In this document: piece after piece, positions 1,833 to 18,886 of the stretch
Layout of the letters: every line of letters starts with the position of its first letter
How positions within the stretch are numbered: position 1 is the first letter of the stretch
Assembly: GCA_036679645.1 (NCBI GenBank)
Contig: JAZDCY010000019.1
Coordinates: forward strand, 1-18,886
Direction: 5' to 3'
DNA: 18,886 nt
Source: Gemmatimonadota bacterium
GTDB taxonomy: Bacteria; Gemmatimonadota; Gemmatimonadetes; Gemmatimonadales; GWC2-71-9
Translations under genes and position numbers: made by a program
Notes under the pieces: model-generated
Database searches by the model: none
What the model was told of the DNA's origin: nothing
The model's input: only the letters and a program-made list of their open reading frames with translations

Positions 1833-3082
1833 GACCCCCTCCCACGCTCGTTGCCGCCCTCGGCCATCGGGCGTACTTGCGTGCTGTCGCGGAGGTCGCG
1901 AATGGCCTGATATGGCCCGGCGACGATCGTGTCGCCGACGCTCAACCCCTCGAGGACCTCGAAGTGCTCTTCGCCCGCGATGCCGACCTTCACTGGACGG
2001 AACTGCGCAATGCCGCCCGCGACGATGAACACTCCCTCGGTCTCCTCATCAGCTTTCGTCGTGTCCTGCGGGGCGTTCTCGGTCGAGATCGGCGTGTGCT
2101 CCCGAATGGTCAACGCGATGATCGGAATGCTCAGCACGCTATCCCGGGTGTCCGTCACGATCTGTGCGGTCGCCGAAAGATCGGGACGTACGTTAGGCGG
2201 CGGATCGTCGAGCGTGATCTCGACGTCATAATCCACCGCACGGTCACCCGACCCGCCGACCTGACCGAGCACGGCGCTCTGCGAGATCTTGGTGACACGA
2301 CCGCCAAACGTCGTGTCGGGGAATGCGTCGATGGTCACTTCCGTTGAGTCCCCGATCGCCAGCCGTACGACATCTGTTTCATCTACCTGGACCTGTACCT
2401 GGATTACCGACAGATCGCTGACCGTCATCAGCAGACCGGTCTCGCGGGAAAACGTACCCGGAACGGCGACCTCGCCCTCCTCGACCGCCACGCGCGTGAT
2501 CTGTCCATCCATCGGCGAGCGCAACACGGTCTTTGCCAACTGGTCACGTGCCTCGCGCAGACCGGCACGTGCCTGGTCGACCTGACGCTGGCTCGAGAGC
2601 AAGATCGCTTCCGCGATACGGAATTGCGTGTCCGCCTGTTCCAACTGCTCGTCGGAAACCAGGTTCGGGTCGGTGGTCCTGAGCTCGCGCGACCGCCTCA
2701 GGGCCCGCTGGGCCTGCTCGCGGTTGGCCTCCGACTGAATTGCGCTGGCTGCCGCAGAAGCCAGCAGTGCCTCTGCCCGCGCCACCGCCGCTTCGTACGT
2801 GGACGGATCGATCCGAATGAGGAGATCGCCCGCACTGACCCAATCCCCTTCCTCCGCCCGAATCTCGATGACGCGTCCGGTGATGTCGGCACTGACATCT
2901 ACCTGCGTTTGCGGTTGGATCTTGCCGCTGGCCGTCACCGAGGCGACGAGATTACGCTGGTCGACCTCTTCCAGGCGAACCGCGACTCCGCGGTCACGCC
3001 CGCCAGCAATGTTGCTGACGATCAGGACGACGACGACAAGGCCGACGATCCCGCTGATAACCCATCTTCGTTTGCGCGCCAT
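1829..3082 (-). CDS. Efflux periplasmic adaptor (membrane fusion protein, MacA/HlyD/YknX-like)
   Basis: N-terminal TM anchor, lipoyl-like half motifs ([36 protein letters not shown]), coiled-coil hairpin, VDETDV, C-terminal [19 protein letters not shown] upstream. Confidence 0.95.
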
Positions 3083-3097
3083 GATCTGCGTTATCTC

Positions 3098-4588
3098 CTA
3101 GCGCAGCGCCCGCCCCACCGCTGCTTCCAGCGAGGCGATCGACTGATGATATGTGTACACCGCGTTGATGTAATCGGCCGCCGCCTGCTGCGACGCCAAT
3201 TGAGCGTCGAGCAACTCGAAGAAGGTACCCGATCCCACACGGTATCGTTCGGTGGCCAGCCGCAGTTGCTCCGAGGCGGCCACACGGTTGCGTTCCTGAA
3301 TCCCGATTGTCTGGTAGGCCGTCTCGAGCGAGTAGAACGCCTGGCTCACGTCGGTACGGACCTGGAGGCGCCTGGCTTCCATCGCTTCCCATGCGTCGTC
3401 GGCTGCCGCGGCGGCCGTTGACACGCGCTGAGGCCGGCCGAATTGGGTGAAGATCGGGAGCGAGATCGAGACACGGGCCGAGAATGGCTGGCTCGTGAAG
3501 TTGAATGGGAATACTTCGTTCTGCGACCGAATACGCGCCTCGTCTGTTGACGTCAACGCGAGCGAGTTGCAGTCGAGTGGCGTTGCACCGGCGTTCAGCC
3601 AGTTGGCATTCGTGAAAATGCATTCGTCTTGATTGGCGAGGGCGCCCAAACGGGCGCGGTCCACGTCGAAATTGCTATTCGTGTTCTGTTGAGTGAACCC
3701 GGCCCAGCCAGCAGAAACATTGAGGCTCGGGAGCCACTCCGATTTTGCCGCGGATTCGCTGGCCCGCGCAGCTCCCGCCCGCGCCCGCAACGTGTTCACA
3801 TCCGGATTGTCGTTTTCCGCCGCCGCCAAAAGCGCGGAAAGCGACCAATCCGGTTCGACCACTGGGAAGCTATCGGTCATGGTGACGACGGACGGATCTT
3901 CCGGGGCCGCTACGCCCATCTGCTGGAAGAGCCGGAGCTTCTCGACCGTCACCAACTGGCGCGCCTGTAGCAGTCCGACCTCCGACTGTCCCTCCGCGAC
4001 CTCGGCCTGTCGCACATCCAGCATCGTGGCCTGCCCGACCTGGAATCTGGCCTGCGCGAGTCGCAGGAACTCCTCGTTGCGGGTGAGTTGTAACTGGGCG
4101 AGCCCTACCTGCGCCTCTGCCTGCAGGATTGCCAGGTATTGCTGCCGCACCGAGGACTCGAGATTCGTGCGCGCACCGTCGATCGCCGCCTCCGCGGCGC
4201 GGAGCTGTGACTTGGCCAGCCCCGGCCCTGCCAGCGTGGCGCCGGAGAAGTTCCACGCTAGTCCCAACGAGTAGCTCGAGCCGAGCGTGGCCGGCTGTGG
4301 AAACTTCGTCGCGCCGAGGTTCAACTCGCCGGAGCCTTGGTAGGAGAATCCCATGTTGGCGTTGAACGACGGCAGGAACAACTGACTGTACGCATTGCGC
4401 ACGGCCCAAGCAGCGGGTCCGCGGTCGTTGGCGACTTGGCGAAACGTCGGGCTGTGACGAGAAGCGAGCTCGATGGCCTCTGAGAGCGACAGGCTCTGCG
4501 GGACGGATGGGACGGCCGGTCGCTGTGCGGCTGCGGGGACGGCTAGCGTCAGTGCAAAGCCCATCATGGCAAGGGTGCGTGCTAACAT
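3098..4588 (-). CDS. TolC-family outer membrane efflux protein
   Basis: Start moved to ATG 4588 (GAAGGAAG upstream; signal peptide MLARTLAMMGFALTLAVPAAA|Q). LSLSEAIELA start and two OEP repeats (ARFQVGQATMLDV; ERYRVGSGTFFELLDAQ), ending LEAAVG. Confidence 0.93.
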   Translation of the reverse strand: MLARTLAMMGFALTLAVPAAAQRPAVPSVPQSLSLSEAIELASRHSPTFRQVANDRGPAAWAVRNAYSQLFLPSFNANMGFSYQGSGELNLGATKFPQPATLGSSYSLGLAWNFSGATLAGPGLAKSQLRAAEAAIDGARTNLESSVRQQYLAILQAEAQVGLAQLQLTRNEEFLRLAQARFQVGQATMLDVRQAEVAEGQSEVGLLQARQLVTVEKLRLFQQMGVAAPEDPSVVTMTDSFPVVEPDWSLSALLAAAENDNPDVNTLRARAGAARASESAAKSEWLPSLNVSAGWAGFTQQNTNSNFDVDRARLGALANQDECIFTNANWLNAGATPLDCNSLALTSTDEARIRSQNEVFPFNFTSQPFSARVSISLPIFTQFGRPQRVSTAAAAADDAWEAMEARRLQVRTDVSQAFYSLETAYQTIGIQERNRVAASEQLRLATERYRVGSGTFFELLDAQLASQQAAADYINAVYTYHQSIASLEAAVGRALR

Positions 4589-4636
4589 TGTTCTTCCTTC
4601 GCGTGTGAATACGGTGGTTCCAATGACCCGCACGAG

Positions 4637-4665
4637 AATACGCGCTGGACGCGGGGAAGGTTTCA
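4637..4665 (-). promoter_or_regulatory. Putative ECF sigma factor promoter (SigW-like) for the efflux operon
   Basis: Minus strand reads TGAAAC-cttccccgcgtccagcg-CGTATT (TGAAAC-N17-CGTA), about 50 nt upstream of the tolC-like start. The B. subtilis SigW consensus is TGAAAC-N16-CGTA. Confidence 0.6.
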
Positions 4666-4724
4666 TGGTGTGACGCGAGCGGTCAGATTGGGCCGGTGAG
4701 CGGAGGGTGAGCCCCCGGCAGTGC

Positions 4725-5327
4725 TTAGCGTAACTGACGTTCTGCTACGAGGTTACGCGATGGAATCGTGACTTTCATGAGCCGGCCCTGTGCGTCGAAC
4801 CAGATGTGATGCGTATCGTCGGGGAGGGTCAAGACGACGTGCCTGAGCGTGCGGCTCGCGGTACCGAGTGTGGTCTGCTCCATGCCACGGTCCTCGAGCG
4901 TGCCGGCCGCCCGCGTACCGGCGCGGGGGTAGAGAACGTTAACCGGTCCGGGCTCGGTGGCGGCAGCGACCGCGTACAGCCCCAGCACCCATTCGTCTGC
5001 CAGCAGGGTATTCGCCCGATTCGGATACTCCCGCGCGGTCTCACCGCTGATGGTCGCAATACGAATGGTGACCCTGCGTGGGCCAAACCGGGCGAAAGTA
5101 CGCACGGACGCCGTATGCGGGTACTCGTTGATGACCGTTAGGGTCCAACCGGGTCGGCCGGTGGCGTCGGCCACTCGCCGCAGCGCAATCTCTTCCCTGC
5201 CTACGACCTGCCCGTTGGCGCGCACCACAAACACCGCCTCGTCAACAGGCGGAATCTGGCAGGCGGCCTGCAGCGGGTGTGCGCAGACAGCCGCCGCGAA
5301 AACGGCGCCCAACAAGCGGGAGGCCAT
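4725..5327 (-). CDS. Exported hypothetical protein, predicted beta-rich
   Basis: Strong SD AGGAGG 4 nt before ATG; signal peptide MASRLLGAVFAAAVCAHPLQA. The C-terminal HIWFDAQGRLMKVTIP is typical of beta-sheet exported DUF proteins. Confidence 0.8.
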   Translation of the reverse strand: MASRLLGAVFAAAVCAHPLQAACQIPPVDEAVFVVRANGQVVGREEIALRRVADATGRPGWTLTVINEYPHTASVRTFARFGPRRVTIRIATISGETAREYPNRANTLLADEWVLGLYAVAAATEPGPVNVLYPRAGTRAAGTLEDRGMEQTTLGTASRTLRHVVLTLPDDTHHIWFDAQGRLMKVTIPSRNLVAERQLR

Positions 5328-5335
5328 ACGTCCTC

Positions 5336-6106
5336 CTAGTCCCCTTCGCGAGCGGACGGCAGCTGGCGACCAAAGATGCGGGCCGCAATCCGCTCATAGA
5401 TAACATTATAGAGTCGGCGTCCCTTCTCAACCGAGGCGAGGGTCGGCCGTCCCAGTGAGCCCGGGCTTTCCGGCGGAATCCGGGAGGTCGCGCGACGATA
5501 TGCCCGGAGCCGGCGCGAGGCGGGGATGAAATCGGTAGCCTCGTCGAGCTCGACGAGACTCGCGTCGATGTAGAGCAAGAGCGACGTATCGAATTCGCCG
5601 CCGTGAATCGGCACTGGCTCTTCCTGAGGGAGCGGCACGCTGAAAATGTCCACCGTGCGAATCTCAGCCGACTGGGTACGGAGTGTGGTGAGCGCCTCCT
5701 GGTGTGGGTCGTTGCCGTGGGCCGTGATGATGACGAACCGCTCTATGCCACCGACCTCCCACGAGCCGACCAGGTCGTTCATGAACCGGTGGAGGGTCTT
5801 GCGGCGAACCGTGGCGTTCCCGGGGTACACCGTACGCGTGACGGCATTGACCCCATATTCTACGGTGGGCGCGCGTAGGACGCCGAATTCCTGCGAGAGG
5901 TCGTCAGCCAGTCGCTCGACGATGATCGTGTCCAAGCCGAACGGGAGGTGGGGGCCGTGCTGTTCGGTCGTGCCGACTGGCACGATGAGCCGCGGGTCCC
6001 GGTCTATGATCTCGCGGACCTCGGGAGGAGTCAGGTACTTGAGCGCCAGGGGGTGGCGGTGACCCGCCGGCGAGTCGGTCAGTGGGAGCTCGTGGCTCTG
6101 TTCCAT
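5336..6106 (-). CDS. Creatininase-family amidohydrolase
   Basis: Start moved to ATG 6106 (AGGAG upstream). Motifs LIVPVGTTEQHGPHLPFGLDT, YGV, PGN, ITAHGN, IHGGEFDTS and G-x-LGRPTLASVEKGRRL match the family. Confidence 0.9.
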   Translation of the reverse strand: MEQSHELPLTDSPAGHRHPLALKYLTPPEVREIIDRDPRLIVPVGTTEQHGPHLPFGLDTIIVERLADDLSQEFGVLRAPTVEYGVNAVTRTVYPGNATVRRKTLHRFMNDLVGSWEVGGIERFVIITAHGNDPHQEALTTLRTQSAEIRTVDIFSVPLPQEEPVPIHGGEFDTSLLLYIDASLVELDEATDFIPASRRLRAYRRATSRIPPESPGSLGRPTLASVEKGRRLYNVIYERIAARIFGRQLPSAREGD

Positions 6107-9100
6107 GGGCTCCTGCTGGGTGCGTGGCTGCTGCACCCGGTTTGGGGATGGGCACTTGCGGTTTGCGGATCGGGCCTGTTGACGGTCGTTCTGGGGATCG
6201 GGGCACGTCGAGCGACGGTTCTGTTGGTCACCGGTATTGGGCTCGTGGCTGTCGGTGCCGCGCTGAATACCACCGCACGGGTCTCGCGCGTCGAGCGGGC
6301 GTGGGGCACGGACTCGACCGGAGTCAGATGGCAGCTGGTCGATGACGCGTTCCGGCACCTCGATGACGTGCTGCTGTCCTCGGTCGATCGGATCCAGGAC
6401 ATCGCCGAACGGGCGGAGGCGCTGGTAGACGGGGAGCGGGCCGCCGCCTTTGCCAAGCTGGAGGATGCGGTTGAAGGGGACGGCGCGGAGGTGGGTGTCC
6501 TGATACTCGACGGCGAGCAGCGGCCGTGGGCGTGGGCTGGACGCCATCGGCTTCCTTTTTCCGCGGTCGTCACCGGACTCGACGTGCGCATCACTCCATT
6601 CTACGCGACGCTGGACGCGTGGCGCCAGACTGAGAATGGGTACACGGTGGTTGCCCACGTGCTGCTCGATGCGGACCAGGCCGTCCCGGACCGCGAGCGC
6701 ACGCTCCGAACGCGGTTCGCGATTACCAGCGGTGTAGACCTCGAGTTCTACGCTGCCGGCCGCGGCCCGTGGGCGGACGTTTTCGACTATTGCCTGCCGT
6801 CGTGTACAGCGACGGACGTGGTCCCCGATACGCTGTTCAGCGTGCGACTGGTGCCACCTACGCAGGGGACTTACAAGCTGGACCTGCTGGCCGGTGGCGA
6901 GCGGCGTGTTGCGGTGCTGATCGGTCTCTTTCTGCTCGGTGCGATGCTGCTGGGCGGCCGCCTCGCGCGGGGCGGTGCGCTGCTGGCGTTGGGTGGCTTG
7001 TTGGTCTTCACGCCTGCCGGAAGCGACCTGCGCTTGGGGACTCTGTTCTCCCCGGCGACATTCTTCACGGAGACCCTTGGACCCGTCTCCGACTCGGCGG
7101 GTGCCCTCCTCACGACCGCTATCCTCGCGCTCATTGCCGCGGTTGCGCTATTCCGGTGGGGCGTGCGCCGCGGGATGGCGACTATCGGCGTGGCGGCGGT
7201 CCTGATCGTGACGGCGCCGTATCTCCTCGGCGAGCTTGCATCTGGGATCACACCTCCCGCGGCGGGATCCGATGTAGGACTCTGGCTTCAGTGGGAGTTG
7301 CCGATCGCCGTAGCGAGCGCCGCGCTCCTGCTTCTCGCCGCGGGGTTCGTCCGTGGCCGCGACCTCGCCGCGCGGGCCCCGGGATGGATGTCGCTCGTGG
7401 CCGCCGCCTGGGCCGTCGGTGCGGCCCTCGTTGGATTGCTCGTGTGGCAGCCCATCTCCGGGTGGCCGTACTGGTACCTCTACCTCTGGCTGCCGGCCAT
7501 CGTGTTCGCCATTCAACCGGGTCCCCGACTCCGGGTGGTCGCCACGTTGGCCGTCGTGTCGGGATCGGCGTCGGCGCTGCTCACGTGGGGCGCGGCGGCC
7601 GATGGCCGGCGGCTGCTGGCCGAGCGGGACATGGTGGGACTGCGCCAAGGTGGTGATCCGGTAGCGGTGGGGCTGCTGGAGCAGTTCGGGTCCCGACTGC
7701 AGGAGGAGGAGTTGCCGCAGAGTGCGGCCGAGCTGTTCAGTCGGTGGAGCCGATCCTCCCTCTACGAGGATGGGTACCCAGCGCTCCTGGTCGCGTGGTC
7801 CCGCAACAACGCCGTCCTAGCACGACTCGACCTGGCGGAACTCGCGTTGGCCGATGAACTCGCCGTCCTGCAACGGCAGGCGGCCGCGGCCGTGGAAACG
7901 CACGTCCCGGTCGTGCGGCAGTTGGAGCGCGTTCCGGGAATGCACTACGTCCTGTCCGTTCCGTATCCGGACGGGTCCGCTGTCTCGGTCGCCATCGGCC
8001 CACGGTCGCGCGCGATCGCCCCCGTGCGGATCGCGCAGTTTCTTCGCGGTGAGCCAACGCTGCCACCGCCGTATCAGCTCACGCTTTCCGAGCCCATCGT
8101 GGGGGCGGTTCCGCTCGGACCGAATGCGATCACTTGGCGGCGTGATGGCCGAGTCGTGCGCGGTGAGGCATTGCTGCAGATCTCGGATGCCGCACGTCAC
8201 CTCCACGCGGCCGTCCAACTCGGCACGACCAGTGGCGTCCTGATCCGAGGTGTGTTGGTCGTCGCGCTCGACGTGGCGTTGATCGTGTTCCTCTGGCTGT
8301 TCGGCGAAGCCGCCCTGGGAGGCGTGCGGGTCCCGCCAGTCCTGATCGAACTCGTGTCCGGTCGCTCCTATCGCACGCGGTTGGGGCTGGCGTTCGCCGT
8401 GTTCTTCGTCATTCCCACGGTCGGCTTTGCTGCGTGGTCTGCCCGGCGACTGCAGGTGGAGGCTGAGGGGGCGCGGGACCTCGTCATTCGCCAGACCCTC
8501 GCCGACGCCGCGGGCACCGTCACCGAGTTTCCGGGCATGCCGGCCATCGTGGCCCGCGAGTTCCTCGCGGATCTGGGTGGGCGGCTCAGCTCGGATCTCG
8601 TGTTGTACGAGGGGAGCGAGCTGTCGGAATCCTCGGCGCCGGTCCTGATCGAGTTGAGCGTGCTGGATCAGTATCTCTCCAGGAACGTGGAGCGCGCGCT
8701 CGTCATCGGTGATCAACTCGAATACTCGACCAGCGAAGTGATCGCCGGCAGTGAGACGCGCGTCGGCTACCGCGATCTCGGGGGCAGGGAAGGACGTGAG
8801 GCAATCCTGGCGGCGCCGCGGCTCGTGGAGGACCCGTTGCTCATTCGGAACGAGCAAGATCTCCTGTTCGGCCTGCTCCTCGTGACCCTCGGCGGCATGG
8901 TGGCGGCCGCGGTGCTCGCGACCGTCGCCGCGGGCGCGCTTGCCAAACCGGTGCAGGCGTTGCGGGAGGCCGCGGAGCAGGTGGGCCGGGGCGTCATGCC
9001 CAGTCCGTTCGGACGGGACACGCCCGGTGAGTTCGTGCCGGTGATGACGGCCTTCGAGCGGATGGCGAGCGACGTAAGCGCCTCGCGGCGCGCCGTCGAG

Positions 9101-10084
9101 GAACAGCGGCAGCGTACCGTCGCCGTTCTCCGCAATGTCGCAACGGGCGTCGTGGCGCTGGACGACCGGCTCTGCGTGACGATGGCCAACCCGCGGGCTG
9201 AGGAACTGCTGGGCTGCAGGCTCGTGCACGGCCTGGCAATCGCCGAGCTGTCACATGAGGGGTGGATGCCGGTCTGGGAATGGGTCCGGGCAGCGGCCCG
9301 CGGGCTCGAGGATACCGAACCCACTGAGTTCACCATCGATGAGACACAGGTCCGGGTCCAGATGGGCCGCCTACGCGGCACGGCGAGCGGGTGGGTAGTC
9401 GCGCTCGATGACGTGACCGATCTGGCCCGTGCCGTCCGCGTCCTGGCATGGGGCGAGCTCGCGCGTCAGGTCGCGCACGAGATCAAGAACCCGCTCACGC
9501 CCATCCGCCTCGGGATTCAGCATCTACGTCGCTCGTTCAACGCTCCCCGCGGTGACTACGCCGAAACACTTGACCGGACGAGCAAGCAGATGCTCGCGGA
9601 GATCGAGCGGCTCGATGCGATTGCCCGGGCTTTCTCGCGTTTCGGTGCCCCACCCGCTGAGGCCGAGCCACTAGAGGTCGTCGATCTGGTGGAAGTGGCG
9701 CGCGATACGGCCGCCCTATACACACTGGGGGAGAGCGATGCCGTGCGCGTCGAATCTGAGGGTCCGGCCACGGGAACGGCCCGACGAGACGAGCTGAAGG
9801 AGGTGTTGATCAACCTGATCGAGAACGCGCGAACGGCCGGAGCGCGGCACGTCACGATCTCGCTGGCAGCTGCGAACGAGACGGCGAGCATCGCGTTGCG
9901 TGACGATGGACAGGGGATCCCGCCAGAGGATCTACCTCGGATCTTCGAGCCGCAGTTTTCTACGACGACGAGCGGGACGGGACTCGGCCTCGCGATCTGT
10001 AAGCGGCTGGTCGAGTCGTGGGGCGGGGAGATCGCGGTCGAGAGCGGAGGGGATGGGACGACTGTGACGATTCGGGTGTCGTAG
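6059..10084 (+). CDS. Large multi-TM sensor histidine kinase (HAMP-PAS-HisKA-HATPase_c), NtrY-like; start uncertain
   Basis: H-box WGELARQVAHEIKNPLTPI, N-box EVLINLIENA, G1 DDGQGIP, F-box RIFEPQFST, G2 GTGLGLAI. HAMP (LAKPVQALREAAEQVGRG), PAS (VATGVVALDD...ANPRAEELLG) and many N-terminal hydrophobic segments. GTG 6059 chosen because it directly precedes the first TM segments. Confidence 0.92.
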   Translation: MTRRRVGQWELVALFHGLLLGAWLLHPVWGWALAVCGSGLLTVVLGIGARRATVLLVTGIGLVAVGAALNTTARVSRVERAWGTDSTGVRWQLVDDAFRHLDDVLLSSVDRIQDIAERAEALVDGERAAAFAKLEDAVEGDGAEVGVLILDGEQRPWAWAGRHRLPFSAVVTGLDVRITPFYATLDAWRQTENGYTVVAHVLLDADQAVPDRERTLRTRFAITSGVDLEFYAAGRGPWADVFDYCLPSCTATDVVPDTLFSVRLVPPTQGTYKLDLLAGGERRVAVLIGLFLLGAMLLGGRLARGGALLALGGLLVFTPAGSDLRLGTLFSPATFFTETLGPVSDSAGALLTTAILALIAAVALFRWGVRRGMATIGVAAVLIVTAPYLLGELASGITPPAAGSDVGLWLQWELPIAVASAALLLLAAGFVRGRDLAARAPGWMSLVAAAWAVGAALVGLLVWQPISGWPYWYLYLWLPAIVFAIQPGPRLRVVATLAVVSGSASALLTWGAAADGRRLLAERDMVGLRQGGDPVAVGLLEQFGSRLQEEELPQSAAELFSRWSRSSLYEDGYPALLVAWSRNNAVLARLDLAELALADELAVLQRQAAAAVETHVPVVRQLERVPGMHYVLSVPYPDGSAVSVAIGPRSRAIAPVRIAQFLRGEPTLPPPYQLTLSEPIVGAVPLGPNAITWRRDGRVVRGEALLQISDAARHLHAAVQLGTTSGVLIRGVLVVALDVALIVFLWLFGEAALGGVRVPPVLIELVSGRSYRTRLGLAFAVFFVIPTVGFAAWSARRLQVEAEGARDLVIRQTLADAAGTVTEFPGMPAIVAREFLADLGGRLSSDLVLYEGSELSESSAPVLIELSVLDQYLSRNVERALVIGDQLEYSTSEVIAGSETRVGYRDLGGREGREAILAAPRLVEDPLLIRNEQDLLFGLLLVTLGGMVAAAVLATVAAGALAKPVQALREAAEQVGRGVMPSPFGRDTPGEFVPVMTAFERMASDVSASRRAVEEQRQRTVAVLRNVATGVVALDDRLCVTMANPRAEELLGCRLVHGLAIAELSHEGWMPVWEWVRAAARGLEDTEPTEFTIDETQVRVQMGRLRGTASGWVVALDDVTDLARAVRVLAWGELARQVAHEIKNPLTPIRLGIQHLRRSFNAPRGDYAETLDRTSKQMLAEIERLDAIARAFSRFGAPPAEAEPLEVVDLVEVARDTAALYTLGESDAVRVESEGPATGTARRDELKEVLINLIENARTAGARHVTISLAAANETASIALRDDGQGIPPEDLPRIFEPQFSTTTSGTGLGLAICKRLVESWGGEIAVESGGDGTTVTIRVS

Positions 10085-10155
10085 CGGTGAGCGGTGAGCC
10101 GGACGCCGCGTCGTGTGTCGTAAATCATTACAGTAAAATCAGTTAGGAGTGCTTG

Positions 10156-10183
10156 TTGACTGTGCTGAGATGTGTATTATTAT
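10156..10183 (+). promoter_or_regulatory. Putative sigma70 promoter of the RHH/nucleotidyltransferase pair
   Basis: TTGACT (10156-10161), 16-nt spacer, TATTAT (10178-10183), in a conspicuously AT-rich intergenic patch about 30 nt before the RHH start. Confidence 0.6.
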
Positions 10184-10214
10184 CTAGTAACACTATTGCA
10201 TACTGGTGCTGGCA

Positions 10215-10613
10215 ATGACGTATGTACGGACGTCCATCACGCTGCCGCCCGAACTCGTGGGGGCGGCAGATCGAAGAGCTAGGGAACTGGACCGGTCGCG
10301 CAGTTGGGTGATTGCTGAGGCGTTGCGGCGGTACGTGGCGGATCCTCTGGACCGCACGGCAGGCTCGGTAGCCGGTCGGGTCAGTGAAGCGGTCGTGCCC
10401 TACGTGGTGAGCAGGCCCGGCCTGGGCGAGTACCGTCAGATCCAACTCGAGGCCGACTTGGCTCTGACGCCTGAGGAACGGGTCCGCGCGGCGGAGGCGA
10501 CCGCTCGGGTTGGGGAGTTGTCTCGTGCGTGCGGCCGGCGAGAGCAGGTGCTCACCTTCGAGCGCTACGAGGATTACCTCGATTGGAAACGCCGTGAGGG
10601 CGTGCGCCCATGA
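10215..10613 (+). CDS. Ribbon-helix-helix (CopG-like) DNA-binding protein with C-terminal extension; putative antitoxin/regulator
   Basis: N-terminal VRTSITLPPELVGAADRRARELDRSRSWVIAEALRRYV is a classic RHH pattern. C-terminal LALTPEERVRAAE. ATGA overlap with the next gene. Confidence 0.8.
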   Translation: MTYVRTSITLPPELVGAADRRARELDRSRSWVIAEALRRYVADPLDRTAGSVAGRVSEAVVPYVVSRPGLGEYRQIQLEADLALTPEERVRAAEATARVGELSRACGRREQVLTFERYEDYLDWKRREGVRP

Positions 10614-11074
10614 ACAAGCATCAGACGCAGCTCGCGGACGTCTGCGAGCGGCTGAACGACCACGGCGCCAAGTACGTATTGGTAGGTGCTTCGGCCATGC
10701 AGCTGTGGGGCACCACGCGCGCCACGCGGGACATCGACATCCTGATCGAGAAGAGTGTAGAGAACGCGGGGCGCGTGCTCGCTGCGTTGTCAGAGGTCGG
10801 TTTCGGATTTGCCCGCGATTGGCTGGCTGAAGAGGTCGCACGAAAGCCCGTGACGATCATCGGAGATTCTCCGCGAGTAGACATCTTGAACGTCGCGTGG
10901 AGCGTGCATTATCCCGAGGCGGCGGCGGACGCGACGGAATTCGCGTTGGAAGGCGTGAAGATCCCCACCGCATCAATCGATCATCTCATCGCTTCGAAGC
11001 GGACCGGACGGCTGCAGGACGCGGCGGACATCGAGGCGCTGGAGGAGATCAAGCGTCTACGCGAAACACGCTAA
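10610..11074 (+). CDS. Small Pol-beta-superfamily nucleotidyltransferase (AbiEii/DUF1814/DUF6036-like); putative toxin
   Basis: YVLVGASAM (hGG/GS-like motif), RATRDIDIL (DxD), RVDIL (third Asp), LIASKRTGRLQDAADIEAL (K...R.QD..D motif of this clade). Translationally coupled to the RHH gene. Confidence 0.82.
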   Translation: MNKHQTQLADVCERLNDHGAKYVLVGASAMQLWGTTRATRDIDILIEKSVENAGRVLAALSEVGFGFARDWLAEEVARKPVTIIGDSPRVDILNVAWSVHYPEAAADATEFALEGVKIPTASIDHLIASKRTGRLQDAADIEALEEIKRLRETR

Positions 11075-11115
11075 CCGCCTTACCCGCCGAGCCGTTGGCA
11101 CCCATATTAGGCGCC

Positions 11116-12291
11116 ATGCCTAGGAACTTCACGGCGAGTCGCACCCACGGATTCACCGAATCGGTGATCCGCGAAATGACGCGGGTCGCAGCCCAGCACA
11201 GTGCTATCAACCTCGCGCAGGGGTTCCCGAACTTTCCGGCGCCACAGGTTGTAAAGGACGCGGCCGCCAAGGCGATCCACGACGACATCAACCAATACGC
11301 CGTCACCTGGGGCGCTCCCCGCCTGCGCAACGCGCTCGCTGCCAAGTACGCCGCGTGGTACAACATGGAGGTGGACCCGGATCGTCACGTCACCGTGACG
11401 TGTGGTGCCACGGAGGCCATGGCGTCGGTCCTCCTGGCGACCGTGGATACCGGTGACGAGGTCGTGATCCTCGAGCCGTTCTACGAGAACTACGGGCCGG
11501 ATGCGATCCTCTGTGGTGCGAAACCGGTGTTTGTGCCCATCGCGCCACAAGGGCCGCTTGACGCGGACCGCATTGCCAAGGCCCTGTCGCGGCGCACGAA
11601 GGCGATCATCCTCAACACGCCGAACAACCCCACGGGCCGTGTGTTGAGTCGTGAGGAACTCTCGGAGATTGCGACGTTGTGCATCGCGCACAACGTTATC
11701 GCGATCACCGATGAGATATACGAGCATATCATCTACGACGGTGAACATGTCCCGCTCGCGTCGCTGCCGGGAATGCGCGAGCGGACGATCACGATCAGCG
11801 GAGCCTCCAAGACGTTCTCCGTTACGGGATGGCGCATTGGGACCATCGTGGCGCCTGAGACGATCACCAACGCCATCCGGAAAGTTCACGATTTCCTCAC
11901 CGTCGGTGCTCCGGCCCCGCTGCAGGAAGGCGTGGCCGCCGGCCTCGAGCAGTTGCGCCCCGGTTTCTACGAGGCTCTGGCGAACGAGTATCGCACGCGC
12001 CGCGATGTCCTGCTCGCCGGTCTCGAAGATGCCGGATTCAAGTGCGTTCGGCCGAATGGGGCGTACTACATCATGGCGGATTTCTCGGAGCTGAGCCGCG
12101 AGTCTGATACGTCATTCGCGCGGCGTCTGACCGGGGAATTCAAGGTCGCGCCGGTCCCGGGTTCGAGTTTCTATAGTGAGCCCGAACTTGGGCGCCAGAT
12201 GGTACGGTTTGCCTTCTGCAAGACGATGGATCTGCTCCAGGAAGCCGGCAATCGCCTGGCAGGCATCCGGGCGCGTCTGGGTGTCGTATGA
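11116..12291 (+). CDS. PLP-dependent class I/II aminotransferase (YbdL/kynurenine/methionine aminotransferase-like)
   Basis: Start moved to ATG 11116. INLAQGFPNF, NQYA, VTCGATEA, EPFYENY, LNTPNNPTG, TDEIYEHI, SKTFSVTGWRIG (PLP lysine), VRFAFCK. Confidence 0.95.
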   Translation: MPRNFTASRTHGFTESVIREMTRVAAQHSAINLAQGFPNFPAPQVVKDAAAKAIHDDINQYAVTWGAPRLRNALAAKYAAWYNMEVDPDRHVTVTCGATEAMASVLLATVDTGDEVVILEPFYENYGPDAILCGAKPVFVPIAPQGPLDADRIAKALSRRTKAIILNTPNNPTGRVLSREELSEIATLCIAHNVIAITDEIYEHIIYDGEHVPLASLPGMRERTITISGASKTFSVTGWRIGTIVAPETITNAIRKVHDFLTVGAPAPLQEGVAAGLEQLRPGFYEALANEYRTRRDVLLAGLEDAGFKCVRPNGAYYIMADFSELSRESDTSFARRLTGEFKVAPVPGSSFYSEPELGRQMVRFAFCKTMDLLQEAGNRLAGIRARLGVV

Positions 12292-12307
12292 AACGGGTCA
12301 TCTCGCA

Positions 12308-12333
12308 GGAACCTTTTTCCTCCTCCCGGTATT
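12308..12333 (+). promoter_or_regulatory. Possible ECF sigma promoter upstream of msrP
   Basis: GGAAC-N16-GTATT (GGAACCTTTTTCCTCCTCCCGGTATT), about 40 nt upstream of msrP. Shares AACCTT and GTATT with the motif at 4637-4665. Confidence 0.4.
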
Positions 12334-12371
12334 AGATCTGGCGACTTGGGAATCCCCCCGCGCCTGAGGAC

Positions 12372-13307
12372 GTGATGCTGATCAAACGCCCGCCCGATAT
12401 CCACGTATCCGAGATCACCGATGAGCGGCTCTACTGGAACCGCCGCGAGTTCATTCGGTCGACGGCAGGCGTCGCCGCCGGTGTGGCGATGCCCTCGGTG
12501 CTGGGGTGCGACCCGGTGCGTGACGCCGGCGCGGAGGAGGGGACGGCCGCGGACGACGAGCTGACGCCCTTCGAGGATGTCACCAGCTACAACAATTTCT
12601 ATGAGTTCGGCACGGACAAGAGCGATCCGGCAAAGAATGCTGGGACTCTGCGCACGCGCCCGTGGACGGTGGTTGTCGAAGGTGAGGTCAACAACCCTGG
12701 CACATGGGATATAGACGACCTGATGAACGTGGCACCTCTCGAGGAGCGCGTGTACCGCCTGCGCTGCGTCGAGGCGTGGTCAATGGTGATCCCGTGGCTC
12801 GGGATCTCACTGAGCGCGTTCATCGATCGCCTCGAGCCGACGTCTCACGCCCGGTTCATCGAGTTCGAAACGCTACTCGACCCCCAGCAGATGCCCGGGC
12901 AACGACGGCGAGTGCTCGACTGGCCGTACGTCGAGGGCTTGCGCATGGACGAGGCAATGCATCCGCTCACGCTCCTGACGTTCGGACTCTATGGCCAGAT
13001 GTTGCCAAATCAGAACGGTGCTCCCGTCCGCCTGGTGATTCCGTGGAAGTACGGGTTCAAGAGCATCAAGTCCATCGTGCGCATGAAATTCGTGCGCACG
13101 CAGCCCATGAACACGTGGAACGTGACCGCCTCGAACGAGTACGGGTTCTACGCCAACGTGAACCCGGAGGTCGATCACCCGCGCTGGAGCCAGGCACGGG
13201 AGCGGCGGATCGGCGAGCTGCGGCGCCGCCGCACGCTCATGTTCAACGGGTATGCAGATGAGGTGGGGCATCTCTACGCCGGCATGGACTTGCGCCGGAA
13301 CTTCTGA
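12372..13307 (+). CDS. msrP: Protein-methionine-sulfoxide reductase catalytic subunit (molybdopterin)
   Basis: SEIT..LY.NRREF Tat signal, [28 protein letters not shown] (Mo-ligand Cys), [58 protein letters not shown]. Confidence 0.98.
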
Positions 13308-13322
13308 CCTAACGGTGACGAC

Positions 13323-13922
13323 GTGATACGGCTACGGCGGGTGCTCAAGCCCGCCGTTTTCCTGTTGGCCCTCGTGCCGTTCGCGCTGCTGCTCCACGAC
13401 CTTGTGACGGACGGGCTCGGAGCCAATCCCATCGAAGAGATCACCCATCGCACCGGTTTCTGGGGGCTCACTTTCGTCGTGATCACCCTCGCGGTAACGC
13501 CGTTCCGGCGTCTCTCGGGATGGAACGGCGTGATCTCGCTGCGCCGCATGCTGGGGCTCTTTGGATTCTTCTACGTGACGCTTCATTTCCTCACGTACAT
13601 CGTGCTGGACCAGTTCTTCGCCTTCGCCTTCATCATCGAGGATATCGCCGAGCGGCCGTACATTACGGTCGGATTCACGAGTTGGCTGCTGCTGATTCCC
13701 CTTGCAATCACGTCGACGAATGCGATGATTCGTCGGCTGGGAAAGCGCTGGCGTACGCTCCACAGCCTCGTTTACATCGTTGCATTCGGCGGGGTGCTGC
13801 ACTTTGCCTGGCAGGTCAAGGCCGACCTGCGCGTCCCGACGATTTTCGCGACGATCCTGCTCGTTCTACTCGTACTTCGACTCGTGCCCACGCGAGTGTT
13901 CCGGGCACTGCGGAGTTGGTGA
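13323..13922 (+). CDS. msrQ: Protein-methionine-sulfoxide reductase heme-binding membrane subunit
   Basis: LGANPIEEITHRTG, LAVTP, RRMLGL, LHFLTY, RPYITVG, PLAITS, RRLGKRWRTLHSLVY. Directly follows msrP. Confidence 0.97.
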   Translation: MIRLRRVLKPAVFLLALVPFALLLHDLVTDGLGANPIEEITHRTGFWGLTFVVITLAVTPFRRLSGWNGVISLRRMLGLFGFFYVTLHFLTYIVLDQFFAFAFIIEDIAERPYITVGFTSWLLLIPLAITSTNAMIRRLGKRWRTLHSLVYIVAFGGVLHFAWQVKADLRVPTIFATILLVLLVLRLVPTRVFRALRSW

Positions 13923-13935
13923 TGAGGAAAACACT

Positions 13936-15588
13936 ATGAAACGCGTATTTCATGCCGTACTGGTTGCCACCATCGCGGCCGGCTGTAGTGGTGAACCCGT
14001 TGTGCCCGGGGCAGCGCTCGAGAGCATCACGGCGGAAGACATCGCTCCGCGTATCGCCGCGCTGGCCTCTGACGAGTTCGCGGGACGTGCACCGTCGTCG
14101 GAGGGCGAGACGCGCACGTTGGCATACCTGCGCGATGAGTTCTCGCGGCTCGGTCTCGAGCCGGGCAACGACACCAGCTACTTCCAGGAAGTGCCGCTAA
14201 TCAAGTCGACCGTGACGCCCGGTCCCGCTCTGGTGATCAGCGGCAACGGCCAGACGGCCCGGTTCGCGTACGCCGATGATTTCGTGGGGGTGACACGCCG
14301 CGTCGTGGACGAGACCGGGCTCGACAACTCGGAGCTGGTCTTCGTCGGGTACGGGATCGTAGCGCCCGAGTACGACTGGAACGACTATGCTGGCATCGAT
14401 GCCCAGGGTAAGACCGTTGTCGTTCTCGTGAACGACCCCGGATTCGCGACGCAAGACACGGCCCTCTTTCGCGGCAACGCAATGACATACTACGGCCGCT
14501 GGACCTACAAGTACGAAGAGGCCGCCCGGCAGGGAGCCGACGGCGTGTTGATCGTGCACGAGACCGCACCAGCCGCGTATGGCTGGGATGTCGTGCGCAA
14601 TGGGTGGACGGGTCCCCAATTCATGTTGGAGACGCCAGACGGCAACATGAGTCGCACGGCGGTCGAGGGATGGATCTCGCACGAGACGGCGCGGTCGATC
14701 TTCGCGAGTGGGGGCCACGACTACGAATCGCTCAAAGGAGGTGCGGCGACACCCGGCTTCACGGCGGTGCCGCTGGACGTCACCGCCTCCGTACGGCTCG
14801 AGAATACGATCGAGCGATCCCGCTCTTACAACGTGCTCGCGCGCGTCCCGGGCACCGATCGCGCCGACGAATACGTCGTGTACATGGCGCATTGGGATCA
14901 CCTCGGCACGGACCCGCTGATTGCCGGTGACGGGATCTACAACGGCGCGCGCGACAATGCGACCGGGACCGCGGCATTGCTGGAGCTGGCCGAGGCGTTC
15001 CAGGCATTGAGCACGCGCCCGTCACGATCCGTCCTGTTTCTCGCCACCACTGCCGAAGAACAGGGGCTGCTCGGCTCGCAACACTACGCGCTGAATCCGG
15101 TCGTTCCGCTCGACCACACCGTGGCGGCGTTGAACATGGACTCGATGAACTCGTTCGGGCCGACGCGAGACATCACCGTCGTTGGGTACGGTAACTCCGA
15201 GCTGGACGACTTCGCCCAGCGGGCGGCGGACGAGCAGGGCCGGTATCTGCGACCCGACGCGGAGCCCGAGAAGGGGTTCTACTACCGGTCAGACCACTTC
15301 TCCTTTGCCAAACTTGGTGTTCCGGCGCTCTACCTCGATCCCGGAGTCGAAGCCGTCGACGGTGGTGAGGCGTACGGGCGTGAGCAGCTGGATGCGTATA
15401 CCGCCAATCGGTACCATCAGCCCACGGATGAAATGGACGATACGTGGAACCTGAGTGGTATGGCGGAAGACGTGCGTCTCTTCTTTCGGATTGGGTACCG
15501 GCTGGCGAATACGGGCGCGTTCCCCAACTGGCGGGAGGGTACGGAATTTCGAGCGGCGCGGGATGCCATGATGGGGCAGGGGCGATGA
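13936..15588 (+). CDS. M28-family metallopeptidase with PA domain, lipoprotein
   Basis: Start moved to ATG 13936 (SD GAGG; lipobox IAAG|C). LASDEFAGR, PA domain (LVFVGYGI...DYAGID), AHWDHLG, IYNGARDNATG, TAEEQGLLGS, LNMD, RSDHFSF, YHQPTDE. Confidence 0.95.
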   Translation: MKRVFHAVLVATIAAGCSGEPVVPGAALESITAEDIAPRIAALASDEFAGRAPSSEGETRTLAYLRDEFSRLGLEPGNDTSYFQEVPLIKSTVTPGPALVISGNGQTARFAYADDFVGVTRRVVDETGLDNSELVFVGYGIVAPEYDWNDYAGIDAQGKTVVVLVNDPGFATQDTALFRGNAMTYYGRWTYKYEEAARQGADGVLIVHETAPAAYGWDVVRNGWTGPQFMLETPDGNMSRTAVEGWISHETARSIFASGGHDYESLKGGAATPGFTAVPLDVTASVRLENTIERSRSYNVLARVPGTDRADEYVVYMAHWDHLGTDPLIAGDGIYNGARDNATGTAALLELAEAFQALSTRPSRSVLFLATTAEEQGLLGSQHYALNPVVPLDHTVAALNMDSMNSFGPTRDITVVGYGNSELDDFAQRAADEQGRYLRPDAEPEKGFYYRSDHFSFAKLGVPALYLDPGVEAVDGGEAYGREQLDAYTANRYHQPTDEMDDTWNLSGMAEDVRLFFRIGYRLANTGAFPNWREGTEFRAARDAMMGQGR

Positions 15589-15759: not shown

Positions 15760-16632
15760 TCAGAGGGGCGTGCCGACCCGCCGATGCTGCGCGAGCACTG
15801 ATTCGACACGCGTCTGCGGCACCCCAACATGCTTGGCGAATGCCAGCACCGCGCAGGCGAAATCCAATGGAGGTCCATCTCTGCTTGCCATTCCGAGCCA
15901 GTGCGTGCGTTGGCGCCGGAGCGTATCCTCGCTCATTCCGATTGCCCGTGCTACGACGCCCCAACCGAGCCCACTCCAGTCACGGGTGTACGTCGCGAGG
16001 AGCAGCGATGTCCAGTCCAGTAGCTCTTTCGGGCCAGGGACCACGGCCGACGGCCATCGGCGGAGAAGTGTGCGCGGCGAAATGCCGAGGCTCTGGGCCA
16101 GAGCGGCCACCGAGCAGCGGGCACCGACGCCCCGCAGCCGCAAAGCCGTGCGGGCGAACTCGGCGGGACGACCTCGCAAACCGGGTAGCAGAGCGGTGAG
16201 GACCGCCATCACGGCCTCCTCCGGAGCGGTGCGCAGGAGCCGGGCGAGTGCCTTCGCGATGCGTTCGACGTCAGGCGACGTCCTTTCCTGAGAAATGGCT
16301 GACACACCACGCAGGCTTCGTAGCGAAAACAGGACCGGCACCATCTCAGAGTGTACTGGGACATAGAGCAGAATTGGCAGGGCCGGGCGCAGACGCCGCA
16401 GATCGTGTAACGCCCTGACGGCCGTCCGCGCCGGCACGCAATCGAAGATCAACCCTTGATACTTGGCGAGTCTGTCTATGTTCGAGGTCCCGCTCCAGCC
16501 GGCTTCACGCACGGCAGCGCCGAAATGTCGGATCCCCGCCTCCGCGTAGGAACGCGCGAGCGCGTCCGTGACCGCGACCGCAACGGTGGTGCCGTGGTGG
16601 GCTGGACGGAGAACTCCCGGTCGAAGAGACAT
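15760..16632 (-). CDS. AraC/XylS-like double-HTH transcriptional regulator with degenerate receiver-like N-terminal domain
   Basis: HTH1 SVAALAQSLGISPRTLLRR, linker PGPKELLDW, HTH2 WGVVARAIGMSEDTLRR. N-terminal alpha/beta region (GLIFDC...LRRLRPALPILLY) resembles a REC fold. Divergent from the peptide cassette. Confidence 0.75.
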   Translation of the reverse strand: MSLRPGVLRPAHHGTTVAVAVTDALARSYAEAGIRHFGAAVREAGWSGTSNIDRLAKYQGLIFDCVPARTAVRALHDLRRLRPALPILLYVPVHSEMVPVLFSLRSLRGVSAISQERTSPDVERIAKALARLLRTAPEEAVMAVLTALLPGLRGRPAEFARTALRLRGVGARCSVAALAQSLGISPRTLLRRWPSAVVPGPKELLDWTSLLLATYTRDWSGLGWGVVARAIGMSEDTLRRQRTHWLGMASRDGPPLDFACAVLAFAKHVGVPQTRVESVLAQHRRVGTPL

Positions 16633-16697
16633 CGCGCAATGAAATGGCGGGGGCGATCACCGTGAGTCAAGGTGCTTCCCCAAGCGCACATGTCGCA

Positions 16698-16729
16698 TTT
16701 TGCGGGGGGGGGGGGGGCCGGTTTTGCGG
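16698..16729. promoter_or_regulatory. G14 homopolymer between TTTTGCGG direct repeats in the divergent promoter region
   Basis: TTTTGCGG at 16698-16705 and 16722-16729 (24-bp period); G run at 16704-16717. Confidence 0.55.
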
Positions 16730-16807
16730 TTGTGGCACCAAAGCCGATTCACCCATCGTAATGCGATCCACTGCCAGAGGCACACGCTACCTGAGGCCGA
16801 ACGCCGC

Positions 16808-17092
16808 ATGACAGCAACTCATAAACGTGGCTCAGCGCACAGGCTCGCGGCTACGTCGGTGCTGAGTCTTGTCATCCTGCTAGGAGTCGGCGGGTGCGGC
16901 GATGACCGGGATGCGGGGACGCGCGCGTCTTCCGAGAGCGATCGCATTTCCGTCGTGGATGGACGGCCGTTCGATGACGCCTTTGTCGTGGTGGATTCGC
17001 TTGACCGTCCGCAGCGTGCCAAGCGCTTGTCGAATGGTGACATTCGAGGTTCTTCTCTACTGCCCACAACTACACTTCACGTCAGGGGGTAA
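16808..17092 (+). pseudogene. Short lipoprotein ORF (94 aa), probably the N-terminal remnant of a beta-propeller lipoprotein
   Basis: ATG 16808; lipoprotein signal ...SVLSLVILLGVGG|C30, polar linker, then FDDAFVVVDSL, which resembles VLAVDTL in the intact propeller downstream. The sequence afterwards looks non-globular and overlaps the next gene's SD. Confidence 0.45.
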
Positions 17093-17096
17093 CACA

Positions 17097-17303
17097 ATGA
17101 AGTACTCACGCCTAGGGAGTATTGCTGGCGTTCTTGCCGCGGTCGGGATTCTGCTCGTTCTTCGCCCCGCCGAGAGTACTGCGGATCCGGGGTGGAAACT
17201 GAACTTACCCTGGGGTAACTGTGCAATCGATTGTACGCCGAACCCTGAGGTCGGGTTTCATTGCGACTGTTACGAACTTCCCCCAATCATCGTCGAGGGC
17301 TAG
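17097..17303 (+). CDS. Small secreted cysteine-containing peptide (68 aa; predicted 39-aa mature part)
   Basis: SD AGGGGGT 6 nt before ATG 17097. Sec signal MKYSRLGSIAGVLAAVGILLVLRPAESTA|; mature DPGWKLNLPWGNCAIDCTPNPEVGFHCDCYELPPIIVEG with Cx3C-x9-CxC. Stop lies 4 nt before the next gene. Confidence 0.8.
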   Translation: MKYSRLGSIAGVLAAVGILLVLRPAESTADPGWKLNLPWGNCAIDCTPNPEVGFHCDCYELPPIIVEG

Positions 17304-17307
17304 GGCG

Positions 17308-18432
17308 GTGAAACCCGGTCGGGCCCGTCGGTTCAATTGGACCGCATTGCGTTTTGCGTATACGGTGGTGCTGGGCTCGCTCGCAATAGCGTGCACCTCA
17401 CCGGCGGCGCAGGACAGGTCCTCGACCGACGGGCCGACCGTCCTTGCTGTAGACACGCTAGTTCTTGTTGAGACAGACTCGTTGTACCTGGCCCGTCCAC
17501 TTGCTCTCTACAGAGACCCGACCGGTGGATTCTATGTGTCGGATTTGTTTCGGAATCGCGTCGTGCTCTACGATGTCGCCGGGAACGCCGGGCGCATCTT
17601 TGGTCGACCTGGCGGTGGTCCCGGAGAACTCCGACAGGTCTCATTCGTTTTCGTGCGAGATGACTCCACCGTGGCGGTTTTCGATATCTCGAAGAGGTTA
17701 ATCAATCTCTACGATCGCAACACGGCGGTCTTCCGCAAGACTGTGCAGTTTGAGGGCATTGGCTTGAGTATACAGACTACCGATGAAGCGACTTGGTTTG
17801 GCGCAATGCAACTTGGAAGAGGCACCGCCGTCGCACGTTGGAAATCTGGCAGCCAAGCGGTTGAGTACTTCATCCCGATGCCCGAGGCATACTTTCAGTC
17901 GCGACTTCTTGCGGGCAATTACGCTGGCGCCTGGGTAGCGGTTTGGGAAGACACCCTAGCAGTAGTTATGACCGGAGCAGACACTGTCCGCCTATTCACA
18001 ACCACGGGTTCCAAGCTAGACGCCATCCGCGTACCAGTCCGCCGCAGACGCGGGGTCCCACTAGACATCGTGGACCAGATGCAGCCCCGGCGAGGGCTCT
18101 CGACCCGCGACCGTTTTGCTCTTGCCTCTGCGGTAATGGGTTTGTATCGACAGTCGGATGGTACGCTTCTTCTTATACATGCCGATCAAAGCATTGATGG
18201 ACGGCTGATCACGGCGGATGTCTTCGTGAGCTTAATATCGCCGGACCGAACCCGAGCCTGTGTGGATACGCAGCTAGCAGTATCGAAAGACGCGCAACCG
18301 CTATACACCTTCTACGCCGATACGCTGTTTGTGTTGGAGCAGCGTATCGGTGACAATGACAACGTCAGAACCTCTGTGACCAGCTACCGGATTGACGGCG
18401 ACCGATGCGACTGGATTCAGATCACTCGATAG
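17308..18432 (+). CDS. Six-bladed beta-propeller (TolB/NHL-like) lipoprotein
   Basis: Start moved to GTG 17308; lipobox LAIA|C29. Blade motifs FYVSDLFRNRVVLYD, FGRPGGGPGEL (G.xG.GPGE signature), VAVFDISKRLINLYD. Two C-terminal Cys. Confidence 0.85.
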   Translation: MKPGRARRFNWTALRFAYTVVLGSLAIACTSPAAQDRSSTDGPTVLAVDTLVLVETDSLYLARPLALYRDPTGGFYVSDLFRNRVVLYDVAGNAGRIFGRPGGGPGELRQVSFVFVRDDSTVAVFDISKRLINLYDRNTAVFRKTVQFEGIGLSIQTTDEATWFGAMQLGRGTAVARWKSGSQAVEYFIPMPEAYFQSRLLAGNYAGAWVAVWEDTLAVVMTGADTVRLFTTTGSKLDAIRVPVRRRRGVPLDIVDQMQPRRGLSTRDRFALASAVMGLYRQSDGTLLLIHADQSIDGRLITADVFVSLISPDRTRACVDTQLAVSKDAQPLYTFYADTLFVLEQRIGDNDNVRTSVTSYRIDGDRCDWIQITR

Positions 18433-18791
18433 AACAACTCTTCATCGCAGCCTATAACACCGTCATACGAACCGTGGTCACGGCTTGGGCGGGCATCGCG
18501 CTCTCCGGATGTGGTTCTGGGATAATTCCGATTGTGGAAGCCCGCCTTGAGGATGGACGAACAGTCCGTGAGGTTGCAGCAGCTTGGGACACCTCAATTG
18601 TGCTCATATACGATCCGAGTGACTGTTTCACATGTTCGGGGGTCCTAGGGTCGTGGCTGGGAGAGGGCGAGCAGTCACCCGTTGCGGTCGCACTTGTTCT
18701 TGCACGGACTCCGTCGGCGTCTGAGCAGCGATTGATCAAGCTTTACCGTCTACCCGTTGCTGGGATCATGAAGAGTCAAGCCCAATCTTAG
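18405..18791 (+). pseudogene. CxxC thioredoxin-like lipoprotein, apparently truncated by an IS insertion at ~18773
   Basis: Lipobox ALSG|C, beta-strand SIVLIYDPSD followed by CFTC (18624-18635), then helix and VAVALVL. No cis-Pro second half is visible; the last residues (SQAQS*) come from the IS-like terminus. Start uncertain. Confidence 0.6.
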
Positions 18792-18886
18792 TTGAAACTT
18801 CTTACGGCCCCGACAACCTCATGCTGCCCGCCTGCTCCTCTCCTCTGCGCGTTCCAGCTTCAGCTCTTTCATGATCGCAGTTTGAA
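18773..18886 (-). mobile_element. Probable IS256-family insertion sequence, right end only
   Basis: Minus strand shows a transposase-like C-terminus QTAIMKELKLERAEERSRRAA* (stop 18819-18821), followed by AAGTTTCAACTAAGATTGGGCTTGACTC. This resembles IS256-type terminal repeats as recalled, not searched. The window ends inside the element. Confidence 0.6.
18819..18884 (-). CDS. C-terminal fragment of a probable IS256-family transposase (partial)
   Basis: Open frame from the window edge: QTAIMKELKLERAEERSRRAA*. Only 21 residues are visible. Confidence 0.5.
   Translation of the reverse strand, partial: QTAIMKELKLERAEERSRRAA

Follow-up and report, generated by a model that had tools for sequence, protein, structure and literature searches.

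Small cysteine-containing peptides of Gemmatimonadota, about half of them with a C-terminal tail that resembles the TonB boxes of their hosts

A TonB box pairs with β3 of TonB as a parallel strand, and the structure of this strand outweighs its side chains for box activity (PMC11658791, for the latter its section 9). Group B colicins and TonB-dependent pyocins (e.g., colicin M, pyocin S2) are described in the same paper as proteins of several domains, with the box at the N-terminus and a domain that is catalytic or forms a pore (PMC11658791). When brought into the periplasm, free box peptides (e.g., ETVIV; siderophore conjugates) compete for TonB and inhibit TonB-dependent growth (PMC9841981). 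Synthetic box peptides of this kind have validated TonB as a target for antibiotics. These decoys are man-made, whereas the peptide described below is gene-encoded; a full-text literature search, which covered few subscription papers, returned no description of a natural gene-encoded TonB-box decoy, of this peptide family or of its cassette. An earlier study of a free TonB-box peptide is reportedly the pentapeptide work of 1992. The nearest natural analogue is BfUbb of Bacteroides fragilis, a small secreted disulfide antagonist that enters through a TonB-dependent transporter and has a periplasmic target (PMC11467351, as far as its accessible part goes). It differs from our peptide in its ubiquitin fold, in its target (a PPIase) and in its reliance on the transporter's box, and no propeller or CxxC partner is described in that part of the paper.

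We analysed one entire contig of a Gemmatimonadota bacterium (18,886 nt; the whole stretch is referred to as the window). Close to its end, a gene at 17097-17303 encodes a 68-aa precursor that consists of a Sec-type signal and a mature peptide of 39 aa, followed by genes for a propeller lipoprotein and a CxxC lipoprotein:

15760..16632, minus strand: divergent helix-turn-helix (HTH) regulator (Pfam HTH matches)
16808..17092, plus strand: ORF for a short lipoprotein, similar to the CxxC lipoproteins in their N-terminal part but without CxxC (alignment row)
17084..17089, plus strand: ribosome-binding site AGGGGG, 7 nt before the ATG at 17097 (sequence)
17097..17183, plus strand: predicted Sec signal peptide, residues 1-29, ending in ESTA (sequence, helix of the model, N-termini of homologues)
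17184..17303, plus strand: mature 39-aa peptide and stop codon (translation)
17220..17270, plus strand: Cys core Cx3C-x9-CxC (Cys conservation among homologues)
17277..17300, plus strand: TonB-box-like tail LPPIIVEG, starting two residues past the last Cys
17308..18432, plus strand: six-bladed β-propeller lipoprotein, DUF5128/DUF4221-like (structure model, PDB and Atlas matches)
18405..18772, plus strand: CxxC lipoprotein with CFTC at 18624-18635, cut off at 18773 (alignment)
18773..18884, no strand assigned: repeated element interrupting the CxxC gene (blastn, depth rise)

Translation of 17184-17300 gives DPGWKLNLPWGNCAIDCTPNPEVGFHCDCYELPPIIVEG (stop codon TAG at 17301-17303) and thereby confirms the mature peptide that the earlier note had predicted, with its 39 aa, two Trp, four Cys (spacing 3-9-1) and the terminal ELPPIIVEG. 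The signal cleavage site after ESTA was placed by eye; the AlphaFold model of the precursor has a helix at residues 6-21, within the signal region, and the N-terminus is hydrophobic in every homologue. The Cys core probably forms two disulfides, and the tail is unpaired in the model (pTM 0.41). Judged by homology, the peptide gene is genuine; synonymous and non-synonymous counts in five close pairs made no purifying selection visible. The precursor had no Pfam, NCBIfam or significant PDB sequence match, Foldseek with the peptide model found nothing, and all Atlas matches were below 0.8. Furthermore, no second copy was found in the same genome among the candidates scored by profile search, and promoter and terminator scans stayed at chance level.

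The tail shares the Leu-x-x-hydrophobic-x-Val strand of TonB-dependent transporters (BtuB, FhuA, SusC-type). SusC has an N-terminal extension ahead of its box (PMC11467351, in its accessible part), and the peptide likewise has a small domain ahead of the strand. Unlike a transporter box, the tail is followed by no plug or barrel, contains Pro-Pro, has a poorly kept V-T-[AG] end and would belong to a free periplasmic peptide; in this last respect it resembles the synthetic decoys. With the group B colicins and TonB-dependent pyocins it shares an adjacent candidate immunity gene and, if the peptide is indeed an antagonist, a box of its own. However, the peptide is of only 39 aa, Sec-type, without a catalytic domain and with the box at its C-terminus, and its 68-aa precursor lacks receptor-binding, translocation and killing domains, which places it outside this group. 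Class II microcins possess a double-glycine leader and a C39-peptidase ABC exporter; here the leader is Sec-type, and neither such an exporter nor another peptide exporter was found in the 96 of 215 neighbouring ORFs that were scanned. Enzyme-modified RiPPs are linked to radical SAM, lanthionine synthetase or YcaO enzymes, and none of these was detected in the same 96 ORFs (E≤1e-6).

A phmmer search against 1.84 billion representatives returned nine matches, i.e. the peptide itself, six short signal-bearing relatives with the same tail (E≤2.5e-5) and two long repeat proteins, which were discarded. As these matches are partly selected by the tail, an independent peptide set was built from the downstream propeller. 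Among 401 genomes of the phylum, 74 contained matches to the propeller profile, at 126 places in all; 105 of these places and the locus of a same-genus genome, which carries a syntenic orthologue of the peptide gene, made up a set of 106 propellers. A filter blind to the tail (signal peptide and at least two Cys) gave 41 candidates next to these propellers, of which three proved to be junk frames and were removed; the remaining 38 peptides come from 34 loci. The tail is present in 17 of the 38 and absent from 21; profile search added two tailed and two tail-less members, and tailed peptides span four host families. We conclude, from sequence comparison, that this is a real, hitherto undescribed and unannotated peptide family of Gemmatimonadota, about half of whose members carry a conserved, host-matched TonB-box-like tail, and whose function is deduced from sequence and genomic pattern. 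Other searches yielded less: the single peptide retrieved nothing but itself from a word index, no longer or fused form came up in a search of low power, a scan of genome contigs with the propeller found nothing, and contig scans with the close peptide alignment found one locus each, the same-genus orthologue. In six loci (L145, L146, L152, L200, L286, L289) tandem pairs of differing Cys peptides stand ahead of one propeller, and the peptides of L286 and L289 end in short hydrophobic strands without L-P-P.

The Cx3C-x9-CxC core proposed in the earlier note holds for this peptide, but the x9 loop (3-10 residues long in the alignment) and the second Trp are not family-wide. The pattern common to the family is Cx2-3C-x3-11-Cx0-1C; C46, C56 and C58 are at least 90% conserved (44 aligned peptides). 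In alignment A7, row L201 is short of its last 8 residues because its coordinates were shifted. The second Trp (position 39) occurs in only 2 of 33 tailed peptides, and a tryptophan-tryptophan cofactor of the methylamine dehydrogenase type was dropped for this reason. An identity with lactococcin 972 was also rejected (weak match in only 2 of 44 members).

Among the 33 tailed peptides, Pro63 is found in 29, Ile64 in 30, Ile65 in 27 and Val/Ile66 in 31. Mean identity (36 pairs of nine representatives) is 0.51 for the tail, a value inflated by the choice of tails by pattern, and 0.22 for the non-Cys core. The alignment of homologues proposed earlier as a check thus shows a tail that is kept while the core varies, but in only 17 of the 38 cassette peptides. 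The tail is C-terminal in all tailed members, and its distance to the last Cys is nearly fixed; the C-terminal ends differ, the last aligned position (8) being Gly in 11 of 33. On a quick propeller tree, tail presence changes 3 times, compared with 11.6 times when shuffled. With so few changes the tails are not independent observations; judging from this tree, all may share one origin and may co-vary with the propeller.

The genome that harbours the window encodes a canonical TonB, followed by ExbB/ExbD-like ORFs, and 12 of its 14 plug-bearing proteins have a box-like segment shortly ahead of the plug (e.g., LPDIVITA, LTPIVVTA, LDPLVVAE); that of a BtuB-like protein aligns to the TonB box of BtuB. 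A profile of these boxes placed the tail first among 3,416 predicted C-termini (14.3 bits, the next 8.6; background proteome from a simple gene caller of our own), and 23 of 1,233,008 internal 8-mers scored at least as high, about half of them training boxes and about half unrelated strands. When the profile was built without the own genome, from 29 distinct boxes that four other host-family genomes supplied, the tail again ranked first of 3,416, which speaks against the chance match that the earlier note had considered possible; 16 of 17 tails exceeded the 99th percentile and none of the 21 tail-less peptides the 95th. All 75 boxes from other genomes taken together ranked the tail 1-2, with 14 of 17 tails above the 99th percentile. 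Boxes of distant families (45, from the best plug matches) ranked it 29 of 3,416, and 6 of 38 peptides passed the 99th percentile.

Since the boxes had been picked with a pattern of our own, the reverse test matters, in which a tail profile without the query was run against pre-plug segments with the 95th percentile of random windows as cut. Above it were 10 of 14 segments of the own genome, 25 of 52 of the host family and 17 of 58 of distant families. The three hydrophobic tail columns alone recovered 9 of 52 and 14 of 58, respectively; the L-P-P part thus adds signal only in the host family. The tail fits the host's pattern of a box strand of 5-8 residues, but it lies neither ahead of a plug nor at the N-terminus of a bacteriocin. 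Its commonest start, Pro-Pro, is present in none of 29 and none of 48 distinct boxes; in the 29 host-family boxes Pro occupies position 2 in eight and position 3 in eight, never both. Position 6 of the tail is V/I in 31 of 33 members and position 7 is T in 9 of 33, whereas position 7 is T/S in most real boxes; the best-kept residues of the tail (Pro63, Ile64, Ile65) also differ from those of real boxes (V-T-[AG]). The resemblance to a TonB box is, at the level of sequence, real and closest to the boxes of the host family; its flaws are Pro-Pro and the T-[AG] end. The likeness claimed in the earlier note stands as far as the pre-plug boxes of the host lineage are concerned; it does not extend to the tail-less majority, to the seldom-kept V-T-[AG] or to the best-kept residues. 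NVEALA peptides of Bacteroidota may carry a similar motif, on which the literature search returned no paper. A pattern scan of viral contigs for the motif gave eight loci, none with a signal-peptide gene.

The propeller ORF has an in-frame GTG at 17308, likely its start codon, and a lipobox Cys at 17392 (Cys22, found in 82% of 106 propellers). Its model is six-bladed (pLDDT 92.8), with 3s9j (BVU_1028) as best PDB match and Bacteroides DUF4221 and NHL propellers as fold neighbours. The partner has the fold and the lipoprotein nature of the DUF5128/DUF4221 propeller lipoproteins (PF17170; PDB 3s9j, 4raa) and matches PF17170 clusters in the Atlas (0.95, 204 shared features); it differs from DUF5128 proper in a Pfam score of 11.1 bits, below the gathering score of 22.9. 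No paper assigning a function to DUF5128 was found in the literature search. Conserved polar residues are R240, S267, H284, D286 and D313. No peptide is found near 68 of the 106 propellers, and some of these orphans reach 88-94% DNA identity to copies from cassettes; the similarity begins ~50 nt ahead of the profile start, near the start codon. Plasmids gave no propeller match. The fold matches include the amidating lyase PAL (rank 34, Z 17.2) as well as NHLRC2 and the plant quenching protein. There an NHL propeller is joined to a thioredoxin-like domain, and such fusions echo the pairing of propeller and CxxC lipoprotein.

A lipoprotein with DPxxCxxC adjoins 28 of the 38 propellers that have a peptide nearby, compared with 4 of the 68 orphans, and thus travels with the peptide. 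C64 and C67 are at least 90% conserved (30 aligned rows) and the CxxC follows the first strand, which makes a thioredoxin-like protein likely; none of the 30 members had a Pfam thioredoxin match, and a match to 3ia1 was non-significant (E 1.2). In the window, this gene is interrupted by 112 nt (18773-18884) identical to the end of another contig (C66) of the same genome, with raised depth in sequencing run X1; the element, with which the contig closes, is possibly IS-like. The ORF at 16808-17092, without a Pfam or NCBIfam match, is a possible remnant. A CxxC gene cut by a repeat and a CxxC-less look-alike upstream mean that this copy of the cassette is possibly decaying; in the same-genus genome the cassette is intact. 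The HTH regulator is not a conserved cassette member (weak tblastn match in 1 of 100 loci), and in one locus (L135) an ECF sigma gene adjoins the cassette. The 96 scanned neighbouring ORFs include transposases, integrase, relaxase, reverse transcriptase and one TonB, so that 1 of 16 tailed loci has a TonB nearby; neither a monooxygenase nor a protease is recurrent in this set. The loci with a peptide yielded no plug domain at all, and five matches all lie beside orphan propellers. In L210 and L215 (G392:C2:12767-15815; G392:C4:1675990-1678943) an orphan propeller stands ~1.6 kb upstream of a plug-bearing frame of 818 aa on the same strand; our own plug profile missed these frames, so that the number of linked transporters given here is a minimum. 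A SusD-like frame directly follows a tailed cassette (L065/L133; seen by eye; no Pfam match at 1e-6), and tail-less cassettes with long acidic-leader peptides precede multi-CarboxypepD_reg proteins at L214:6536-8386 and L219:6478-8337.

We tentatively prefer, at less than even confidence, to read the peptide as a microcin-like TonB-box mimic, the propeller as its immunity protein and the cassette as a polymorphic module. Cleavage of the Sec signal would release the peptide into the periplasm, in which the C-terminal TonB domain acts; the CxxC lipoprotein would set its two disulfides, and the propeller would hold it and spare the TonB of the producer. In the periplasm of a neighbour, the free tail would pair with strand β3 of TonB and either compete with transporters or help in pulling the peptide in. 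A C-terminal box would be pulled in a geometry unlike that of colicins, which makes a decoy seem simpler than self-import. Tail-less peptides use the same cassette, so the partner of the tail more likely lies outside it, and the propeller shared by a tailed and a tail-less peptide side by side in L152, together with the tail-less cassettes, implies that the cassette does not need the tail. With a partner outside the cassette, the producer would need protection. The orphans, near-identical copies, flanks with transposases, integrase and relaxase, and a scattered occurrence (in no more than 32 of 401 genomes) suggest that the propeller behaves like an immunity gene. It is doubtful whether, more specifically, the peptides are natural gene-encoded decoys, stapled by disulfides and copying the small domain and box at the N-terminus of a transporter, that jam the TonB of competing Gemmatimonadota and so starve these competitors, with the propeller, also as an orphan, giving immunity. 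Against a TonB mimic speak the C-terminal position of the tail (known boxes precede a plug or sit at a colicin N-terminus), Pro-Pro, the scarcity of T at position 7, the rank of 29 with distant boxes, for which the hydrophobic columns alone do nearly as well (14 versus 17 of 58), and the absence of plug domains from the peptide loci and of a linked exporter gene. The tail status also tracks the propeller tree, and other subfamilies end in hydrophobic strands without L-P-P.

These last two points favour the main rival, possible but somewhat doubtful, in which the tail docks as a strand onto the propeller or the CxxC lipoprotein of its own cassette (β-augmentation) and the peptide is a ligand or small subunit. 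The TonB likeness would then be generic, as free hydrophobic strands that follow a Pro linker would all look alike; the unrelated strands that make up about half of the 23 top 8-mers, the lack of Pro-Pro in boxes and the missing transporter linkage fit this. However, the 21 of 38 peptides without a tail keep the same partners, the L152 propeller serves both kinds, and with the L-P-P columns included, 25 of 52 host-family boxes are recovered instead of 9. Colicin segments bind the TolB propeller, and the N-terminal Trp of the peptide is reminiscent of them, a likeness unsupported by Foldseek or PDB sequence searches. A complex prediction with propeller, TonB C-terminal domain and peptide (median 0.50, against 0.01 in controls with unrelated partners and 0.36 in a control with the propeller replaced) gave no answer either way. 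The same tail statistics as for the TonB mimic would hold if the tail engaged TonB cooperatively, the peptide being a signal or Cys-based metal carrier re-imported or released with TonB energy, the propeller its receptor and the orphans eavesdroppers. This agrees with the regulators that adjoin certain cassettes (an HTH protein in the window, ECF sigma in L135) and with a binding site that the conserved polar propeller residues could form, but the regulator is not conserved, no transporter is linked, the core is highly variable for a metal site and the CxxC lipoprotein fits disulfides at least as well; we regard this reading as unlikely. Less likely still is a processing or structural element apart from TonB and propeller (a protease or amidation signal, or a strand on the peptide's own hairpin): Gly ends 11 of 33 aligned tails and PAL is among the fold matches, but the motif is spaced from the last Cys and not from the variable C-terminus, PAL matches propellers in general, the 96 scanned neighbours show neither a recurrent monooxygenase nor a recurrent protease, and the model leaves the tail unpaired.

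If the decoy reading is true, it would add a new way of acting against bacteria, and a first function would be assigned to a large family of propeller lipoproteins that have so far gone unexplained. Whatever the tail binds, the cassette supplies a candidate ligand for DUF5128-type propeller lipoproteins, and with it a phylum that is widespread but little studied gains a candidate system of antagonism; disulfide peptides of 30-40 residues with a box-like tail are cheap to synthesise and test.

Contigs of sequencing run X1, which may be the source sample, match 17016-18802 without differences. For 16350-17045, from the regulator to the possible remnant, several variant contigs exist in this run, diverging into other sequence at ~17001 and ~17045, which suggests related modules with different payloads. 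Upstream (1131-15588), a MacAB/TolC-type efflux system, a sensor kinase, an aminotransferase, an MsrPQ-like pair and an M28 peptidase were recognized by eye. Elsewhere in the same genome, contigs C8, C53 and C68 carry a large tandem expansion of Ser/Thr kinases with more than 12 near-identical N-termini, and an open frame of more than 6,100 aa with ~30 weak CarboxypepD_reg-like repeats is found at C54:3-18476.
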